A stretch of 64,000 nt of DNA. It comes from Nitrospirales bacterium (GTDB taxonomy: Bacteria; Nitrospirota; Nitrospiria; Nitrospirales; UBA8639). The notes beneath the pieces were generated by a model, which worked only from the letters and a program-made list of their open reading frames with translations, did not search any database and had not been told where the DNA came from. A program made the position numbers and the translations under genes. Where the stretch lies: assembly GCA_012270585.1 (NCBI GenBank), contig JAAXIB010000020.1:13187-77186 (forward strand), given 5' to 3'. This document shows positions 35,029 to 53,438 of the stretch, in pieces. Positions within the stretch are counted from its first letter, which is position 1. Every line of letters starts with the position of its first letter.

Positions 35029-36053
35029 TGTTGCCAGTTGAAAGGTGGAACAGAAGCCAGCAGCCTCGCAGCATCGAGCGCACCGTAGGTCACGATCAGA
35101 TCGGCGCCGGCTCGGCGCAGAGAGCCGAGCGATTCCAGCAAGACTTCTTCGTATCCGAATGCGCCGGCGGCCGATGCCGCCTTGAGCATGGCGTATTCGC
35201 CGCTTACCTGGTACACCGCGACCGGAAGCACCGTATGGGCTCGCACCAGACGCACGATGTCCAGATACGGCAAGCCAGGTTTCACCATCAGCCAATCAGC
35301 GCCTTCTTCTTCATCCAGCTGGATTTCCCGCAACGCTTCCCTGCGATTCCCAGGATCCATCTGATAGGTCCGCTTATCGCCGACACGCGGCGCACTCTCC
35401 AAGGCGTCACGAAACGGTCCATAAAATGCCGAAGCATACTTCACGGCATAGCTGCAGATGCCGACATGTGGATAGCTGGCCTCATCCAAGGCCCGACGGA
35501 TCACACCGATCCGGCCATCCATCATGTCCGAGGGAGCCACGAGGTCTGCTCCAGCCTGTGCCTGCACGAGGGCCATCTCTGCCAACAACGGCAGTGTCGC
35601 ATCGTTGTCGATCTTTCCATTGATCACCACGCCGTCATGTCCATCCGATGAATAGGGATCGAGTGCCACGTCGCTGAGGACCAGAAGGTCCGGCGCAGCG
35701 GCTTTCACTGCGCAAATCGCCCTAGCCATCAGTCCCTGCCGGTTGCAGCTCTCCCGGCCTCGGGGATCCTTGAGACGATCCGGCACAACCGGAAATAGCG
35801 CAATCCCGGCCAGTCCCGCGGAAGCGGCTTCCGCGGCCTGCTCGACGGCCCGGTCGATCGAGACCCGCGCGCAGCCCGGCATGGAGGCAATCGGGGTCAC
35901 CAGATCGTCCCCTTCCTGCACAAACAGGGGCCATATCAGATGCTGCGGCGTGAGCCTGCCGGTCGATCGCCTCGTTCGGAATGCCGCTCGTGCGCGATGG
36001 AGCGGAGGCGAGTCGTCGAGCGGAGTCGGGATCGAATGGAGGCTCATTCCCAA
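35025..36053 (-). CDS. hemB: porphobilinogen synthase (delta-aminolevulinate dehydratase), Asp-rich (Cys-less) metal-site variant
   Basis: 342 aa; ...PLFVQEG..., active-site lysine region ...DWLMVKPGLPYLDIV.... The metal-site segment reads DVALDPYSSDGHDG instead of the Cys-rich DxCxCxY..GHCG. Confidence 0.9.
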   Translation of the reverse strand: MGMSLHSIPTPLDDSPPLHRARAAFRTRRSTGRLTPQHLIWPLFVQEGDDLVTPIASMPGCARVSIDRAVEQAAEAASAGLAGIALFPVVPDRLKDPRGRESCNRQGLMARAICAVKAAAPDLLVLSDVALDPYSSDGHDGVVINGKIDNDATLPLLAEMALVQAQAGADLVAPSDMMDGRIGVIRRALDEASYPHVGICSYAVKYASAFYGPFRDALESAPRVGDKRTYQMDPGNRREALREIQLDEEEGADWLMVKPGLPYLDIVRLVRAHTVLPVAVYQVSGEYAMLKAASAAGAFGYEEVLLESLGSLRRAGADLIVTYGALDAARLLASVPPFNWQQ

Positions 36054-43853: not shown

Positions 43854-44162
43854 TCAAACCGCGGCGGGAGGACCCCGCGAATAAGGGACGGACACGAGCA
43901 GGCTCGAAAACTCTTGCACTGAGGGAATCGGCAGGATAGCCGACGGCAACAGCACGGACGGCAGGACAAGGCCAGTTTCAGACAACGATGAACTGGCAGC
44001 CCACTCCAGCCAGGCGTGAACATCGGCATCAGAGTGGTCGGGATCGCCGGCTTGTACGGCGGAATAGTGATCGATCAGCAGGTAGGGCAGGGGCAGAGCG
44101 ACCAGCCCATACAGCATCGCAACGGCGGCGATGAACATCACTCGAATCAACCTGGCCTGCAT
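43854..44162 (-). CDS. hypothetical single-pass membrane protein
   Basis: ORF with one TM (...VMFIAAVAMLYGLVALPLPYLLI...) followed by a His/Asp-containing segment. Weak coding evidence. Confidence 0.25.
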   Translation of the reverse strand: MQARLIRVMFIAAVAMLYGLVALPLPYLLIDHYSAVQAGDPDHSDADVHAWLEWAASSSLSETGLVLPSVLLPSAILPIPSVQEFSSLLVSVPYSRGPPAAV

Positions 44163-44250
44163 CCTTCCTGCCACTCCGATACACTCATCCGTAGCGCGCC
44201 TCGCATGTGAGAGCGCTCTCGTCGAACCCTTGTGAGCCTGATCCAATCCA

Positions 44251-46365: not shown

Positions 46366-46689
46366 CTAGTCGGTCTCGTAGCCCGGCGGGTACCAACGTC
46401 CCGGCGGCTCCCACATCCCGTCGTCGTTTTGAACGGTGAGGACGCGCACGCCGTCTTTCGTGACCGCCAGGGTGTGCTCGCATTGGGCTGATAGTTTGCC
46501 GTCGATGGTGACGGCGGTCCAACCGTCGTCGAGGATCTCCATCTCCCAAGCACCTTCGTTGATCATGGGCTCGATGGTGAAGACGAGGCCGCTCGACTCG
46601 TAGAAATTGACGCCGTTGGTGTTCTCTTTCATCACACGGTGAATAGGAAATTTAAAAGGCCTTTTTGGCTTGAACTGGAAAGTCGCCAA
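46366..46689 (-). pseudogene. map: 3' fragment of a methionine aminopeptidase gene
   Basis: Only the last ~75 residues match Map (...[52 protein letters not shown]...). The N-terminal two-thirds of the enzyme are missing. Confidence 0.6.
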
Positions 46690-46928: not shown

Positions 46929-47243
46929 TCAGTGCTTGCCATGTGAATGCCCTCCATGCGACCGGCAATCATGTCCACAGCCTTGTATGCCCAACCCGCC
47001 ACCGTAAATGTTTTTGAGCGTGGGAGGAGGAGCGGTCGAGCCCGGTGGAGGATCCGATGACGCCCGGCTTTGGGCCATAACATCAGCCCCTGCCGAAAAC
47101 ACTGACGGGGTCTTCTCCAACGGTGCCCCGCATTCGCGACAGGCCGTCACCGGGGCATCATGCATGTTCTGCCAAAAGGCAAACCGCTTAGGACAAAACA
47201 GCGATTTCAAACAATATTCGGCTTGATATTCATAGATGGGCAT
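46929..47243 (-). CDS. FmdB-type zinc-ribbon-like small protein with degenerate first CxxC and a His-rich tail
   Basis: MPIYEYQAEYC...CPKRF...ACRECGAPLEK.... The C-terminus is ...GCGHDCRSHGGHSHGKH. Start set at ATG 47243. Confidence 0.5.
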   Translation of the reverse strand: MPIYEYQAEYCLKSLFCPKRFAFWQNMHDAPVTACRECGAPLEKTPSVFSAGADVMAQSRASSDPPPGSTAPPPTLKNIYGGGLGIQGCGHDCRSHGGHSHGKH

Positions 47244-47577
47244 ACACTTCCCTTTCTTTTTGCCCAATCAGCACCAAGGCATGATCCGGTTCTTCCCGGA
47301 GTTGAATGGGGCCGACCCACCGCCAGGCGGGTCGTGAAAATTGCACCTCATGCAAAGCATTGGAGTCAGCAAATCGACAAAACCCTTTCACCCGTTCGAT
47401 CCCATCGGGCAGGTGTTCACACCATTCAAGAAACCGTGCACGATTCAGGGGACGCGGCAACGGAATCGTCGCCACCATCGGATGACAAGACGGATAAGAA
47501 AAAACCGTCCCCTGCCTTGCTTTATGCCTCATACTCGCCAAGCAGGGTTGACGGAACGGGCTGTTTGACTGCAACAT
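47230..47577 (-). CDS. stand-alone CobW_C-like domain protein (possible COG0523 remnant)
   Basis: ...FSYPSCHPMVATIPLPRPLNRARFLEWCEHLPDGIERVKGFCRF...HEVQFSR...ALVLIGQ... resembles only the C-terminal domain of COG0523 proteins. Start uncertain (47577 or 47532). Confidence 0.45.
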   Translation of the reverse strand: MLQSNSPFRQPCLASMRHKARQGTVFSYPSCHPMVATIPLPRPLNRARFLEWCEHLPDGIERVKGFCRFADSNALHEVQFSRPAWRWVGPIQLREEPDHALVLIGQKEREVYAHL

Positions 47578-47585
47578 TGCCCACC

Positions 47586-48887
47586 TTATTCGTCTTTCGT
47601 TCTTTGAAACACCGTTACCCCGACGACCATTGTCCGGACCGCCGCACCGCGAAGTCGCCACCCCGCAAACGGGCTGTTCCGCCCCTTCGACCGAAACCGT
47701 TCCGGATCAACCGTCCATTCCATCCTTGGATCGATCAACACCACATCAGCCTGTGCCCCGGCGGCCAACGTCCCGCACGATAGACCCAACAAACGGGCCG
47801 GGGCTGACGTCAGTTTTTCTATCATGGATTCCAGGGACAACAGGCTCTCTTCTACCAGCCGAAGAGAAAGCCCTAAGGCCGTTTCAAGTCCGACTATTCC
47901 AAAAGGAGCCTTGGACAATCCCCACTGCTTCTCATAGGCAGCATGCGGAGCATGATCGGTGGCTATGGCATCAATGGTGCCATCCTGCAACCCGTCGCGG
48001 ACCGCCTGGATATCCGCATTTCGACGGAGGGGAGGATTCATTTTCGCCAATGCGCCTCGGTCCCGCACCGCCTCTTCGGTCAGCATGAAATGATGGGGGC
48101 AAGCTTCCGCAGTCACCCGAATTCCGGCGACCTTGGCCGTCCGGACGGCCTCCACCGCATTCGCCGTACTGATATGCGCGATATGCAGATGGCATTCCGT
48201 TGCCTTGGACAACGCGATATCCCGTTTCACCATCTTGGATTCCGCTTCAGAAGGGATGCCTCGGACTCCCAAGAGACGGGAAAGGGGGCCCTCAGCCATA
48301 CATCCGCACCCGGCCAATGACAGATCTTCGCAATGATCGATCACCGGCAGATCCAAGGCCCGAGCCTCTAACATCGCCTGTCGCATGACGGCATTTTTCA
48401 TCACGGGACGGCCATCATCCGAGACAGCCACACATCCGGCCCCACGTAAGCCCCGAAGGTCTGCCGGCTCTTTCCCTTGTAATCCTTTGGTGATGGCCCC
48501 GATTGGATGTACGCGAACCAACCCGGTAGCATGCACACGGTCGTGGATGGTCTGGGTCACAGCAGGGGAATCATTAACGGGATTAGTATTGGGCATGCAA
48601 CAGACGGTCGTAAACCCACCGGCAGCGGCTGCAGCGGTCCCAGTCTCAATGGTTTCTTTGTACTCGAACCCCGGTTCCCGGAGATGGACGTGCAGATCCA
48701 CCAAACCTGGCGCCACAATCAACCCGTCGGCCTTGAAGTGGTCGGCATGTGAGGGAAGAGCCGTCTGTGGAGGCGTCACCTCGGCGATACGACCCTGCCT
48801 GATCCAGACATCCCCCCTACCGTTCCATCGTCCAGGGTCGATAACCCAACCGCTTACGATGATGAATAAATCGGCAGGATGGTTCAG
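47586..48887 (-). CDS. pyrC: dihydroorotase (island copy); start codon unresolved
   Basis: ...DLHVHLREPGFEYKETIETGTAAAAAGGFTTVCCMPNTNP..., ...ATDHAPH.... The track ORF extends into the ZIP gene. No ATG/GTG/TTG lies between the ZIP stop and the conserved N-terminus; CTG at 48887 after GGGGGA is the best candidate. Confidence 0.8.
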   Translation of the reverse strand: MNHPADLFIIVSGWVIDPGRWNGRGDVWIRQGRIAEVTPPQTALPSHADHFKADGLIVAPGLVDLHVHLREPGFEYKETIETGTAAAAAGGFTTVCCMPNTNPVNDSPAVTQTIHDRVHATGLVRVHPIGAITKGLQGKEPADLRGLRGAGCVAVSDDGRPVMKNAVMRQAMLEARALDLPVIDHCEDLSLAGCGCMAEGPLSRLLGVRGIPSEAESKMVKRDIALSKATECHLHIAHISTANAVEAVRTAKVAGIRVTAEACPHHFMLTEEAVRDRGALAKMNPPLRRNADIQAVRDGLQDGTIDAIATDHAPHAAYEKQWGLSKAPFGIVGLETALGLSLRLVEESLLSLESMIEKLTSAPARLLGLSCGTLAAGAQADVVLIDPRMEWTVDPERFRSKGRNSPFAGWRLRGAAVRTMVVGVTVFQRTKDE

Positions 48888-48895
48888 GGATCCCC

Positions 48896-49690
48896 CTAGT
48901 GCGGGAACATGGTCAGCATGCCGATGGTCACCATTCCGGTCAGCATCATGGCAAACGGCCAAGCCCCACTGGCCGCCCCGTGTCGGCCATGTAAGCCGGG
49001 AACCAGATCGGCAAGACCGATATACAAAAAACTGGCGGCGGCCAACATCAGGGCATAGGGCACGATCGGCTCCGCATAGGCCAAGCCCCCAAACGCCAAC
49101 ACCACCCCTGCGAGGGTCGCCATACCAGACAGGGTATTGGCCCAAAACGCCTGCCACCGGGAAAATCCGCTCGACAGCAGAATGGTGAAGTCACTCAACT
49201 CCTGCGGAATTTCATGACCCAGAACCGCCAACGTCGTGACCAGACCCAGAGCAGGGGATACGACACAAGCCACGCCGATGGCAATACCATCGGCAAAGTT
49301 ATGAACAGCATCGCCGACCAGGATCAATGTTCCGGCTTCTCGGCGAACCGTCAGGCCCTTCGCATGCCCGTGAGGCTTGAGCTCAGCAGCCTCCCCGTGC
49401 GCATGACGCCAGATCACCATCCATTCCAGAACAAAGAACAGGACCAGCCCCGCCAACAAAGCGATGCCCGCCTCATTAATCGAAATGTCTTCGAGTGCCT
49501 CGGGAAGCAGCCCGATGGTCGCGGTCGCCAGCATCGTGCCGGTCGCAAATCCCAGCAGATTCGGCATCATCCATTGCCGCCACCCATCCGGAATAAACAG
49601 AATCAGACCGGCAGGTAATAAGGCGCCCAAGCTGCCCAGTAACCCCATCAAGACGACAAACATCCATGTGGATTCTTGGGGCAGGTTCAC
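48896..49690 (-). CDS. ZIP-family (ZupT/GufA-like) divalent metal transporter
   Basis: 264 aa, about 8 TM. ...GDAVHNFADGIAIG..., ...LAVLGHEIPQELSDF.... Histidine-containing loop HAHGEAAELKPHGHAKG. Confidence 0.85.
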   Translation of the reverse strand: MNLPQESTWMFVVLMGLLGSLGALLPAGLILFIPDGWRQWMMPNLLGFATGTMLATATIGLLPEALEDISINEAGIALLAGLVLFFVLEWMVIWRHAHGEAAELKPHGHAKGLTVRREAGTLILVGDAVHNFADGIAIGVACVVSPALGLVTTLAVLGHEIPQELSDFTILLSSGFSRWQAFWANTLSGMATLAGVVLAFGGLAYAEPIVPYALMLAAASFLYIGLADLVPGLHGRHGAASGAWPFAMMLTGMVTIGMLTMFPH

Positions 49691-49753
49691 GCGTTTGGTC
49701 CGATCTGGTCAGGGCCACAGACCTGACCATGATACATCGAACCCCACTTGGTG

Positions 49754-50332
49754 TTAGCCATGCCCATGGACCGGTGGCTGTTCATGTTTGACACGTGGCA
49801 ATAATTCGGTGAGGTTGCAAGGGCGATGATCTATGTCGAGCTGGGGAAGGATGATCTGTTCCATGCCCAAGCGGCAGGCTCCGGTCGACCCCGGCAGCAG
49901 AAACACAATGGTGTCGCCGCACACCCCGGCATCCGCCCGGGATTGAATGGTAGAGGTCCTGATTTCACGGTAACTCAGCCAGCGAAATAATTCACCGAAG
50001 CCCGGAATCGGCTTGGAAAACAGCGAACGGATGGCCTCCGGCGTCACATCCCGTTGGGTCACGCCGGTCCCGCCCGTCACGATCACGAATTCCACCGCCG
50101 GGTCCGCCACCCAGGCGGCGATCGTTTCCCGAATGGTCTCATATTCATCCGGACACAGTTTGCGGTCGACCACACGATGCCCAGACCACATCAATCGATC
50201 AACAATGGTGGATCCACTCGTATCCGTTTCGATCGTTCTGGAATCTGAGACCGTCAAGACCGCCACCGCCACGCTGAGGCCGGCTCTTTTAAAGTCTGCT
50301 GTTTCCGTGGTTGCACCGTCTGCCTGACTCAT
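49754..50332 (-). CDS. moaB: MoaB/MogA-type molybdenum cofactor biosynthesis protein
   Basis: ...[10 protein letters not shown]...DTSG..., ...[18 protein letters not shown]..., ...[11 protein letters not shown].... His-containing tail ...[10 protein letters not shown]. Confidence 0.7.
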
Positions 50333-51024
50333 CCCATCACCTCATGGTTCGATAACATGATCATCCGTGTGCTGACTCTGCCGTTCTCTCCGAATGACAC
50401 GCGCCGGCCGGCCGGAATCCAGATGCCGGCCACCTCCACAAATTCGTTGACATAACTTTCCATCCCGATCACCGTCTGACCATCCAGCGAAAAGTAGGTC
50501 ATCACGTAATGACTGGACACTTGCCGGCCATCCGGGGCGGTGTCGTACCGTTCTATGGTATTCACCCGACGTTCGGCCATGGGGGTGATGCGTCCGATTT
50601 GCGTATATTGTCGGTTCTTGATGCGGTACCAGGACTCGAGTCGTCCTCCGGTCAACAGCACACGGCGCCCCCGGGGATGAGCACAACCGGCATCCTCTTC
50701 GGAATCGAAGGATAAGATGTAGCGGCCGTCACCATCCTCAAACGGCGAATAGGCCAAATGCATTCCCTGCGTCCACAACCGTTCGCGCACCCATTCCTGT
50801 AACGCCGGATCAGCACCCGGCAAGTCCACGGTGGTTTCTTTTCGAGGCACCAGATGAACCGCTCCCCAGACAATCGTTCCGTTGTGGTTGAGGGTGACGT
50901 CGGCTCGATACCCGCCAAACTCTTTGGGCCACTTGTACATCCGGGCATGGGCCTCTCTGACCAGACGTCGCACCTCGGGGTCGTCGGTCAGCTTCAGGCC
51001 GTTTGCTATTGTTGCGTCAGTCAC
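50329..51024 (-). CDS. hypothetical protein, possibly DUF3386-like
   Basis: 231 aa. ...[27 protein letters not shown]... resembles my recollection of DUF3386. 4-nt overlap with moaB. Confidence 0.4.
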
Positions 51025-51041
51025 GCCGTTTCCCGGTTTTC

Positions 51042-51338
51042 CTATACATCGTGGCTTCTATCATCATGATGATGTTCCCCATCCAGCGCCATGGTTTGCA
51101 CATCCTGTTGCGTCACCTCATCCGCCGTTTTATGAATCTTGAACTGGGTCGTCTTTCCCGGCCCTTCCAAAAGCGCAATGACCGTTTCAATGGGCGGACA
51201 ACCGGGCTCCCGGCACTCCAATTCGGTCACCATGACCGTGGTCTCTTCCGGCAAAGACCAGGCCGAACGAACCCAGGATTTGATGCGATCCGCCTGATCC
51301 GGATCAATGCGGGGGCGCCCTCCAAATAAATTCATCAT
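51042..51338 (-). CDS. hypothetical small protein with His-rich C-terminus
   Basis: 98 aa. ...VTELECREPGCPPIETVIALLEG..., tail ...DGEHHHDDRSHDV. 4-nt overlap with the WD40 gene. Confidence 0.45.
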   Translation of the reverse strand: MMNLFGGRPRIDPDQADRIKSWVRSAWSLPEETTVMVTELECREPGCPPIETVIALLEGPGKTTQFKIHKTADEVTQQDVQTMALDGEHHHDDRSHDV

Positions 51339-52390
51339 TTCTCTCCCACGCCTTCCACGGCAAAGAGCGCCACCGTTCCGTCATCGGCGCCCGCCGCCAG
51401 ACAGACATCAATCGGACTCCAGGCCGCACAGGACAATCCTCTCGACACACGCAGTTCCTGACTCACCATCGGCTTCTTCTTCCCTGGCTCCCACAAGCAG
51501 AGCACCCCGTCCTCCCCTACCGTAGCCACCACCCGCTGACGAGGGTGACAGGCAATTGCTTGAATCCACCCCAGATGGCCGCTCAAAAGCCGACCATTGG
51601 ATCCTTCGAAGTTTTGGGCCGACCACGTCACCAAATCAGGACCGGCTGCTGTCCATAAAGATTCTCCATAGGGATCGAAGACCACATGCCCGACCTTGCA
51701 GGGATATCCGGCCATATGCCAATTCCGCTTGGTCGAGACACTCCATAAATGGACCGACCCGTCCAAATTTCCCGCTGCCAGATATTGCCCGGTCGCACTG
51801 ATTGATAACGACAGGAGGGCTCCATCGTAGGGAAACGTATTCACGGGGGAGTCCATCCCGACCTGCCATAAGGTGACTCCTCCGAAACAGGAGGAAAATA
51901 TTTGGCCCGGATATCCTTTTCGCCAACAAAGATCGGACACCGAACTCTTATGATCAGAGGTCTCCCATTCCACAGAACACCCGCCCGACTCCGACCACTT
52001 CAGGATCTGCAGGGTTTTTCCCGCGGTCATCGCCAATCGTTCGCCGCCGGGCTCCCACGCCAGATGTTCCACCCAGCCTTTTCCATCTCCAACCGGAACC
52101 ACGGCACGCTCTTCTCCGGAATCGACGTCCCACACACGCCCCACTCCGTCTTCCCCGGCGGTCGCGAGAATTTTTCCTCCGGGATGCCATGCCTCCGCCA
52201 GCACCGCACCCTGATGTTGCGAGATACGGGAGACGCCCTGCTGGGACGATACATGCCACACCGCGACTTGGCCGCTCGCATCTGCGGCCACCAGCCGGCT
52301 GCCGTCCGGGGAGAACCTCACGGCATGGATGTATTCATCCAATTGAAACGTTCCGATCGGCCGCAATCGAACTCCGGCCCGAGGCCGCAC
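51335..52390 (-). CDS. WD40-repeat (beta-propeller) protein
   Basis: Repeated ...SPDGSRLVAADASGQVAVW..., ...GGKILATAGEDGVGRVWD..., ...GQYLAAGNLDGSVHLW..., ...VVATVGEDGVLCLW..., ...LAAGADDGTVALF.... The GTG start at 52390 shares one base with the upstream TAG. Confidence 0.7.
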   Translation of the reverse strand: MRPRAGVRLRPIGTFQLDEYIHAVRFSPDGSRLVAADASGQVAVWHVSSQQGVSRISQHQGAVLAEAWHPGGKILATAGEDGVGRVWDVDSGEERAVVPVGDGKGWVEHLAWEPGGERLAMTAGKTLQILKWSESGGCSVEWETSDHKSSVSDLCWRKGYPGQIFSSCFGGVTLWQVGMDSPVNTFPYDGALLSLSISATGQYLAAGNLDGSVHLWSVSTKRNWHMAGYPCKVGHVVFDPYGESLWTAAGPDLVTWSAQNFEGSNGRLLSGHLGWIQAIACHPRQRVVATVGEDGVLCLWEPGKKKPMVSQELRVSRGLSCAAWSPIDVCLAAGADDGTVALFAVEGVGEK

Positions 52391-53361
52391 TAAACGAGGC
52401 ACGATCGAAATCCTTCGGTCAGTCGGACGCGATCGAGGTTGCGGCCGATGAACACCATTTGGTTCCCTCTCGGCTCCGTGGCCCGCCACGGCCGATCCGG
52501 GCGACCGTCGAACAACATATGCACCCCCTGAAACACGAAGCGCTCATCTTGTCCCTTCACATTCAAAATCCCTTTCATGCGAAAAATATCGGTGCCCATC
52601 CCCGACAAGACCTCCCGCAGCCAATCATTGACTTTGGCCTCGTCCACCTGTCCGGTCTCGGCAATCGACACGGAGTAGACCGACGGATCATGCTCATGCG
52701 CTTCCTCGCCTAAAAAGTTCGGATCGATTTCCAGTTTCCGGCTCAGGTCAAACGCCCCCACATTCAACAACCGTTCGATTTCCAACCGGGCATCACGGGT
52801 CCGGTAGATTTGGGCCATGGCATTGATGGCCCGAACACGGCTCTCCAGCCGCTCCACTTTCCCTTCGTCCACCAGATCGATCTTGTTCAGAAGAATGACA
52901 TCCGCAAAGGCAATTTGTTCCTTGGCCTCTGGACTGGTGTCCAGGTGTTCCCAGATATGCTTGGCATCCACCACCGTCACAATGGCATCCAACATCAACC
53001 GGCGCTTCATGTCATCATCGACGAAAAAGGTCTGTGCGACGGGTGCCGGATCGGCCAACCCCGTGGTCTCGATAACCATATAGTCGAACCGTTCTTTTCG
53101 TTTAAGCAAATTGGAAATAATCCGGATCAGGTCTCCGCGAACGGTACAACAGATGCACCCATTGTTCATTTCAAAGATTTCTTCGTCCGCTCCTACCACC
53201 AGTTGATTATCAATTCCGACTTCACCGAATTCATTCACAATCACCGCCACCCGTTTCCCATGCTCGGTGGTCAGAATACGATTCAACAAGGTTGTTTTGC
53301 CCGCACCAAGAAATCCCGTCAATACAGTGACCGGGACTGGAGCTTGCTCTTCGACTTTCAT
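52390..53361 (-). CDS. COG0523 (CobW/ZigA/YjiA-like) metallochaperone GTPase, paralog 3
   Basis: 323 aa. [25 protein letters not shown], ...[13 protein letters not shown]..., ...LLNKIDLV..., CobW_C domain. AAGGGGG RBS. Confidence 0.9.
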
Positions 53362-53375
53362 ACTTGCCCCCTTTC

Positions 53376-53438
53376 TGTTCGAACATTTTCCCAGCGCGAC
53401 CGATCCTGCTTATCCTCGCCTCAGGAATGGGCGGTCCG
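53376..53438 (-). promoter_or_regulatory. conserved hairpin element plus adjacent palindromic box, copy B (leader/promoter of the COG0523 operon)
   Basis: Core 53391-53438 on the minus strand: GGACCG-CCCAU-UCCUG-AGGCGAGGAUAAG-CAGGA-U-CGGUC, then GCGCUGGGAAAA. The perfect palindrome TGTTCGAACA (53376-53385) lies 15 nt before the ATG. Confidence 0.45.

Follow-up and report, generated by a model that had tools for sequence, protein, structure and literature searches.

Prokaryotic COG0523 genes of subfamily 5 cluster with WD40 genes and znuABC, some of them behind Zur boxes, and Zur control has been predicted both for such COG0523-WD40 clusters and for PyrC and HemB paralogs (Haas et al., 2009, BMC Genomics 10:470, PMC2770081). 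We analysed a cluster of nine genes, read on the minus strand at positions 46929-53361 of a 64,000-nt stretch of DNA from a Nitrospirales bacterium (the whole stretch is called the window below), using the list of open reading frames (ORFs), six-frame reading and scans with Pfam and NCBIfam. We consider it probable that an accessory island of Nitrospirales for zinc limitation (Zur-type) has in these genes its main operon, with three functional layers, and most likely the operon answers zinc shortage in marine Nitrospira-type bacteria. The reading builds on gene content, tight coupling, conserved order, co-inheritance, paralogy and a link, seen in relatives as well as other phyla, with Fur/Zur and zinc importers. 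An earlier note on this DNA had placed WD40, DUF3386 and MoaB outside the described zinc regulons. For WD40 this does not hold, as the COG0523-WD40 link has been known since 2009 (PMC2770081), whereas the island DUF3386 and MoaB are new leads: our literature search found no mention of DUF3386, no paper linking MoaB with Zur and none on a Nitrospira zinc regulon.

Gene content of the cluster and its island

All nine co-oriented genes of the earlier note were found where it had placed them, and seven of the eight junctions are an overlap or a gap of at most 17 nt. The COG0523 and WD40 genes overlap by 1 nt, the GTG of the latter using the G of the upstream TAG; both the 98-aa protein gene, whose start lies over the WD40 stop, and the MoaB gene, which follows DUF3386, begin in ATGA overlaps. 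This one-base sharing and the two 4-nt overlaps had been pointed out before. The remaining close junctions are a 17-nt gap between the 98-aa protein and DUF3386, an 8-nt gap between ZIP and PyrC (with the PyrC start taken as CTG 48887), a gap of 2-8 nt between PyrC and the CobW_C-only ORF, and a 14-nt overlap of this ORF with the FmdB-like gene. The sole sizeable gap is the 63-nt MoaB-ZIP spacer (49691-49753), which contains a 7-bp hairpin (GGTCAGG-N8-CCTGACC, 49707-49728) and is a possible internal promoter or processing site; its one promoter-like match, CTAACA-17-TATCAT, does not rise above shuffled expectation.

The first gene (52390-53361) encodes a COG0523 G3E GTPase of 323 aa with matches to cobW (PF02492, 213 bits) and CobW_C (PF07683, 89 bits). 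Walker A (GAGKTT), the metal motif GCICC (CxCC), ETTG and NKID can all be read in its translation and, with both domains, place it in the COG0523 family; the best NCBIfam models are the YjiA-type (254 bits) and ZigA (211 bits), both under their cut-offs. Like the genes of subfamily 5 it adjoins a WD40 gene, here with the 1-nt overlap and, in the Nitrospirales loci described below, in 37/37 cases. The WD40 gene (51335-52390; Pfam WD40, 101 bits; alternative GTG start at 52402) encodes a beta-propeller of 351 aa, cytoplasmic and with no signal peptide. In an alignment of orthologs that are 29-74% identical, the signature motifs WVEHLAW, SVH(L/F)W and M-x-GYP-x-KV are kept across phyla.

The third gene (51042-51338) encodes the 98-aa His-tailed protein, a member of a family without a name, for which the Pfam and NCBIfam scans returned no match. 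A profile search nevertheless matched 1329 clusters at 50% identity (E<=1e-3), and the alignment of the family reveals the invariant motif T-E-L-x-C-x-E-x-x-C-P-P-x-E-T-V, corresponding in our protein to T38, E39, L40, C42, E44, C47, P48, P49, E51, T52 and V53, with H69 being near-invariant. The tail is variable, His- or Cys-rich, and reads EHHHDDRSHD in this genome. An AlphaFold model (pLDDT 82) predicts an alpha-beta-beta-beta-alpha fold with both cysteines in the loop that joins strands 1 and 2; a Foldseek search of this model against the PDB gave no significant match. The unit as first described rightly contained the COG0523/WD40 partnership, but it underrated the 98-aa protein, which is a constant partner (36/37 loci). 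As a side observation, one Nitrospira lineage (L005:8748-9731 and the same in L006) is without the WD40 gene, and the 327-aa gene called there begins as the small protein and runs on into the second COG0523, as if a deletion had fused both genes.

The fourth gene (50329-51024) encodes a DUF3386 protein of 231 aa. It had been called possibly DUF3386-like, and the assignment is firm, since PF11866 is matched with 95 bits against a cut-off of 25, over profile positions 3-210 of 211. This island-type protein is an accessory paralog (~34% identity) of a core DUF3386 encoded on contig C71 of the same genome (G000), and the conserved residues, mainly Arg, His, Asp and Tyr, are common to both. The protein has no signal peptide, and its structure model (pLDDT 91.7) bears a weak resemblance to LolA/LolB-like open barrels (TM <=0.38); a search of PDB sequences returned spurious designed proteins only. 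The MoaB gene (49754-50332; 192 aa) is of the proteobacterial type and was correctly named, scoring 234.1 bits with the TIGR02667 equivalog (cut-off 222.4). It has a His-rich C-terminal tail and is the third MoCF_biosynth paralog of the genome, next to a core MoaB-like gene on C67 (45% identity; TIGR02667 150.8 bits) and a MogA-like gene on C59. The core paralog (G000:C67:13905-14372) itself carries a His-rich N-terminal extension, SSPHHPHAHEPGH.

The ZIP divalent-metal importer (48896-49690; 264 aa; PF02535, 118 bits) is the only ZIP-family member of the genome and does not reach the ZupT equivalog (NF003243, 65 bits against a cut-off of 252). The PyrC gene (47586-48887) encodes a paralog of class I dihydroorotase (TIGR00857, 419.5 bits against a cut-off of 279) that is 56% identical to the core PyrC on C2; the metal ligands are retained in its translation, namely the HxH in DLHVHLREPG, as well as DHCED, HIAHIS and ATDHAPH. 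While the gene is present as reported, its start had to be corrected: no ATG, GTG or TTG follows the ZIP stop, and translation probably begins at CTG 48887, 8 nt past that stop and behind GGGGG, a position at which the relative L011 has GTG.

The CobW_C-only ORF (47230-47577; PF07683, 41 bits) was rightly noticed, although it looks like a remnant: some half of the nearest relatives lack it (no copy in L008, L009, L013, L014 and L016), and in L019, L035 and L037 its homolog is the C-terminal part of a full COG0523. Probably it is what is left, in decay, of the third COG0523 gene, which freshwater Nitrospira have between MoaB and ZIP. The zinc-ribbon protein encoded at 46929-47243 has, as described earlier, a degenerate first Cys pair (C-x6-C instead of CxxC) and a His-rich tail, GHDCRSHGGHSHGKH. 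We keep the label FmdB-like only, because of this first pair and because both curated cut-offs are missed (PF09723, 30.8 against 34.4 bits; TIGR02605, 26.9 against 31.3 bits), and its start is most likely the ATG at 47243 (MPIYEY) that produces the 14-nt overlap. Zn_ribbon_8 genes are found also in the COG0523 clusters of Ktedonobacter and Chloroflexaceae. Directly downstream of the cluster, an ORF at 46366-46689 (aligned part 46450-46590) contains no more of a type I methionine aminopeptidase (MetAP) than its ~47 final residues, which share 55% identity with the full gene on C47; the ORF has no counterpart in related loci, and a full MetAP paralog at this place is ruled out, as the alignment covers the 47 C-terminal residues only.

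The ~19-kb zinc-limitation island, in a Nitrospira-type genome of 2.5 Mb, has this cluster at its upstream end. Further downstream, on the same strand, follow a MerR gene with a Cys-rich peptide pair, S14 and S18 paralogs, two long COG0523 genes that bring the total of the island to three, a flavoprotein and a HemB paralog. Core copies are found elsewhere in the genome for PyrC, for MoaB, for DUF3386, for S14 and S18 and for HemB (51% identity), while ZIP, WD40 and the 98-aa protein are single-copy. Judged by their sequences, DUF3386, MoaB and PyrC, and likewise HemB, S14 and S18 of the surrounding island, are thus extra paralogs of core genes. The island HemB has an Asp-type site (DVALDPYSSDGHDG) and the core HemB on C25 a Cys-type site (DVCIDEYTSHGHCG), a contrast that makes them a textbook zinc-sparing pair (Haas et al., 2009, PMC2770081). 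Together with the ZIP importer, the three COG0523 genes and the S14 and S18 paralogs, the Asp-type HemB makes up a cargo of the kind that Zur regulons carry. Between the S14 and S18 paralogs lies a gene for a predicted membrane protein of 130 aa with no Pfam match (43854-44246), which is weakly similar (33%) to a 104-aa protein encoded right after zur in freshwater Nitrospira, where copies of the latter also precede S18.

Conservation in Nitrospirales and in other phyla

We gathered 45 species-level Nitrospirales loci through homologs of the island DUF3386 and compared them by tblastn of all window proteins, taking as denominators only those loci that reach far enough on the side in question. 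Upstream of the island DUF3386, COG0523 and WD40 are both encoded in 37/37 loci and the 98-aa protein in 36/37; a second COG0523, overlapping the DUF3386 start, is present in 26/37, and a Fur-family (Fur/Zur) gene heads the cluster in 23/33. Downstream, ZIP is present in 33/33 loci, MoaB in 27/39 and PyrC in 25/32, so that the last two are variable add-ons rather than fixed parts of the cluster. In freshwater Nitrospira, the overlap of the second COG0523 with the DUF3386 start amounts to 4 nt, and MoaB and ZIP have a third COG0523 between them. The order COG0523-WD40-small protein-(COG0523)-DUF3386-(MoaB)-ZIP-PyrC recurs in ~40 Nitrospirales species and must be old, because the proteins are only 50-75% identical between clades. 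The neighbourhood check that the earlier note had proposed for COG0523-WD40-DUF3386-MoaB thus turned out in favour of a conserved order, and the arrangement is not unique to this genome.

Co-inheritance was analysed in a phyletic sample of 301 Nitrospirota genomes, 38 of them in detail. The 98-aa protein occurs in 18/301 genomes, all of one order, and in 8/19 species of the genus to which the window belongs. WD40 and the 98-aa protein are both present in the same 18 of the 38 genomes and both absent from the other 20. The island-type DUF3386 accompanies them in 16/18 genomes (three copies being broken), the island-type MoaB in 15/18 and ZIP in 15/18; none of the three is found in the 20 genomes that lack the module. 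On the other hand, the core DUF3386 is present in 37/38 genomes and the core MoaB in 38/38. From this pattern it follows that the operon is accessory and that its DUF3386 and MoaB are extra paralogs of core genes.

The same data bear on whether DUF3386, MoaB and PyrC could be passengers, fixed in a mobile accessory island and functionally unrelated to zinc and the chaperone module. Even species of one genus differ in having the island (8/19), pseudogenised copies exist (DUF3386 in G088, G289 and G297, MoaB in G289, ZIP in G136), and the operon contains gene remnants, namely the CobW_C-only ORF and the MetAP fragment. However, the order is held between the diverged clades and the ATGA overlaps are preserved; in a distant contig (48% identity) DUF3386 again adjoins ZIP, and the trio (COG0523, WD40 and the 98-aa protein) lies at a distance of 7 kb; and proteobacterial Zur regulons are established to include paralogs of PyrC and HemB (PMC2770081). 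We therefore regard hitch-hiking as quite unlikely and retain the reading of a zinc-limitation operon, in which the patchy distribution suggests that scarce zinc is a pressure that defines the niche of Nitrospira in the sea and in sponges.

Outside Nitrospira we inspected six contexts, from Blastocatellia, Ktedonobacter and four metagenome contigs, and in 6/6 a homolog of the 98-aa protein is encoded within a few genes of a COG0523 (~451 aa)-WD40 pair. The small protein adjoins COG0523 and WD40 also in Acidobacteriota and Chloroflexota, and in a Chloroflexaceae locus COG0523-WD40 adjoins Fur. Across these phyla the neighbours of the trio are ZnuABC, ZIP, CDF, Fur and an L33 paralog, and outside Nitrospirales the trio is met with no DUF3386, MoaB or PyrC alongside. 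The recurrence in ~40 Nitrospirales species and, for the trio, in other phyla indicates, as had been supposed, a functional unit tied to metal homeostasis and not a chance juxtaposition. At three non-Nitrospira loci (L056:7590-7988, L059:5596-5979 and L061:5584-5988) a conserved Cys-rich protein of 127-134 aa (GCCCGR ... SGCLGPCD) is encoded directly 5′ of the small protein and may be a fourth, optional partner of the trio; its identification as DUF1636 was rejected, as no Pfam match was obtained at E<=0.01.

That the metal is zinc is suggested by most of these neighbours, yet cobalt, nickel or iron have to be considered. COG0523 takes in CobW (cobalt) and the activators of nitrile hydratase, CbiMNQO or NicO-like genes stand beside the trio in three loci, and the Fur-family regulator is not typed as Zur by NCBIfam (29.6 bits with the Zur model). 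Nonetheless, ZnuABC or ZIP accompanies the trio in most loci, the island bears zinc-sparing hallmarks (a Cys-less HemB, the long-form S14, and paralogs of S18, L28 and L33), and the published Zur-box predictions include this COG0523 subgroup (PMC2770081). Another metal is accordingly very improbable as a general explanation.

Candidate regulatory elements

In freshwater Nitrospira, zur heads the cluster and its TTGACA-N17-TAAAT promoter is overlapped by the palindrome TGCAA-N5-TTGCA. The zur ortholog of the window's genome lies far from the island, on C72, with two TGCAA-N5/6-TTGCA-like boxes: upstream of position 35884, three TTG(C/T)AAT repeats spaced 11-12 nt apart stand behind a TTGACA element and give two overlapping boxes. 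In the window itself, the search for ATGCAA-N5-TTGCAT with up to 3 mismatches returned 27 matches against 25.9 expected, and half-sites of the TTGCAAT type do not cluster at the island promoters. The scan for promoters and terminators likewise remained at the level of shuffled expectation. What stands before the operon is another palindrome, TGTTCGAACA (53376-53385, within 53374-53387), located 15 nt upstream of the COG0523 start. It is a candidate operator, and the marine-clade relatives L008-L016 have kept it. The rest of the window has no second copy, and there is no resemblance to the TGCAA-N5-TTGCA box that precedes zur both here and in relatives. Two further candidates were rejected: the palindrome AATGTTCGAACATT has 4 matches against 2.8 expected by chance, and AAATGTTC occurs at three island sites, yet its overall counts are as expected.

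Scanning the window and four relatives at the Rfam gathering thresholds gave no match in the operon leaders. In freshwater Nitrospira, the interval from the gene after zur to the COG0523 start holds a structured element of ~135 nt (L041:6428-6562, L029:6451-6586, L019:6471-6605 and ~20 more loci). It consists of a long closing helix and two hairpins around the conserved CTCAAGGGGTTGG, with 45 predicted pairs, 20 of which show compensatory changes, and it has no match in Rfam. Its covariance model scores 144-151 bits in sense as compared to 34-40 bits in antisense orientation, and finds no match in the window or its marine clade. We propose it as a candidate leader RNA that would regulate the zinc operon in cis.

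Proposed function and comparison with known systems

In the model that we favour, the first layer would be cytoplasmic metal delivery by the CxCC-bearing COG0523 GTPase and its two constant partners. The WD40 propeller could provide a docking platform, and the ~95-aa two-Cys, His-tailed protein might be a zinc acceptor or shuttle, passing metal to and from the GTPase through ligand swapping. The second layer would be uptake by the genome's only ZIP, and the third would consist of back-up paralogs of core proteins, that is, DUF3386, MoaB and PyrC here and HemB, S14, S18, L28 and L33 in the neighbouring operons. These would keep key pathways going under zinc scarcity (pyrimidine, haem and probably the molybdenum cofactor for nitrite oxidoreductase), either because their demand for zinc is low or nil or because the chaperone serves them first. 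For PyrC, which keeps all its ligands, a client or an enzyme of higher affinity is favoured.

The earlier interpretation went further in one direction and saw a scaffold and its set of clients: COG0523 on the WD40 platform would load zinc into the fixed clients DUF3386, MoaB and PyrC, so that the nine proteins would be one delivery complex. The conserved unit and its tie to metal homeostasis stand; the reading as scaffold and clients, however, is overstated, quite apart from the fact that the WD40 link was already known. Translational coupling agrees with it. In freshwater relatives, the second and third COG0523 stand directly before DUF3386 (overlapping its start) and ZIP, respectively, which resembles chaperone-client pairs and hints at chaperone-partner pairs. 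PyrC is moreover a zinc enzyme with its ligands kept, and in eukaryotes METAP1 is the dedicated client of ZNG1, which belongs to COG0523. On the other hand, otherwise complete clusters lack MoaB and PyrC in a quarter to a third of cases, outside Nitrospirales the trio is found with none of the three supposed clients, and no zinc site is known in MoaB. DUF3386, MoaB and PyrC all have core paralogs, a pattern of isozyme substitution, and their status as extra paralogs agrees no less well with the known use of back-up isozymes in zinc regulons. The scaffold-and-client model is in our opinion rather unlikely.

Several points weigh against the layered zinc-limitation operon as well. The operon structure is a prediction, and a second promoter could sit in the MoaB-ZIP gap. 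In the 64-kb window no TGCAA-N5-TTGCA box and no recurrent operator was found, and the marine clade has no Fur gene beside the operon; therefore, it is from cargo and synteny that we infer Zur control of this operon. The trio stands beside CbiMNQO-type importers in two Acidobacteriota loci, and so the metal could differ in some lineages. As for the back-up function, there is no sequence sign of zinc independence in PyrC, because all its metal ligands are kept, nor in DUF3386, because its conserved His, Asp and Arg are common to the island and core copies and do not suggest a lost metal site; to our knowledge, MoaB neither needs zinc nor has a zinc site. Finally, the co-inheritance of the island genes may come from physical linkage alone.

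If correct, the layered operon would matter in several respects. For the widespread zinc chaperones of bacterial COG0523, few partners and clients are known; the operon and its relatives nominate two constant partners, the WD40 orthogroup and the two-Cys family (>1,300 clusters). DUF3386 would gain its first functional context, as a zinc-linked accessory paralog of a core gene. Since Nitrospira relies on the molybdenum cofactor for nitrite oxidoreductase, a MoaB paralog in the zinc response would be a possible and unexpected tie between this response and an energy metabolism that depends on the cofactor. At its boldest, the conjecture would be that COG0523, WD40 and the two-Cys mini-protein are a widespread three-part zinc-delivery machine, wired in Nitrospira to DUF3386 as a LolA-like cytoplasmic carrier and to the extra MoaB, thereby coupling zinc scarcity to the supply of molybdenum cofactor for nitrite oxidoreductase. 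We give this version little credence, although, if true, it would provide the first function for DUF3386 and a link between zinc and the molybdenum cofactor.

Among the known systems, the long Zur-controlled operons PA5534-PA5541 of Pseudomonas aeruginosa and cobW1 of Cupriavidus metallidurans resemble this operon in joining COG0523 to back-up paralogs of zinc enzymes, dihydroorotase included; however, they contain DksA2, FolE2, AmiA and Cam-type paralogs and, unlike the operon described here, are not known to include WD40, DUF3386 or MoaB. The eukaryotic pair ZNG1 (CBWD)-METAP1, in which a COG0523 GTPase has a dedicated protein partner under zinc limitation, follows the same logic as the proposed trio, but the partners here would be a WD40 propeller and a 95-aa protein, MetAP being present only as the 47-residue fragment downstream. 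The Pseudomonas PyrC2 is without zinc ligands (Haas et al., 2009, PMC2770081), whereas the island PyrC keeps them. A beta-propeller is involved in zinc homeostasis also in Paracoccus, where the periplasmic zinc chaperone AztD, often encoded near COG0523 genes, hands zinc to the binding protein of an ABC transporter and is not a WD40-repeat protein (PMC6689063). Our propeller is a canonical WD40 with no signal peptide, which rules out an AztD-like role. A close likeness is to the subfamily 5-WD40-znuABC clusters, where COG0523 likewise adjoins WD40, is linked to Fur/Zur and zinc importers, and shares the regulon with PyrC and HemB paralogs. The GTPase described here is shorter (323 aa, as compared to ~451 aa in other phyla) and is likened to subfamily 5 by WD40 adjacency, and the importer is ZIP and not ZnuABC. 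To these clusters the Nitrospirales operon adds the two-Cys small protein as a constant third partner, together with the DUF3386 and MoaB paralogs, whose links to zinc, like that of the small protein, appear not to have been described before.

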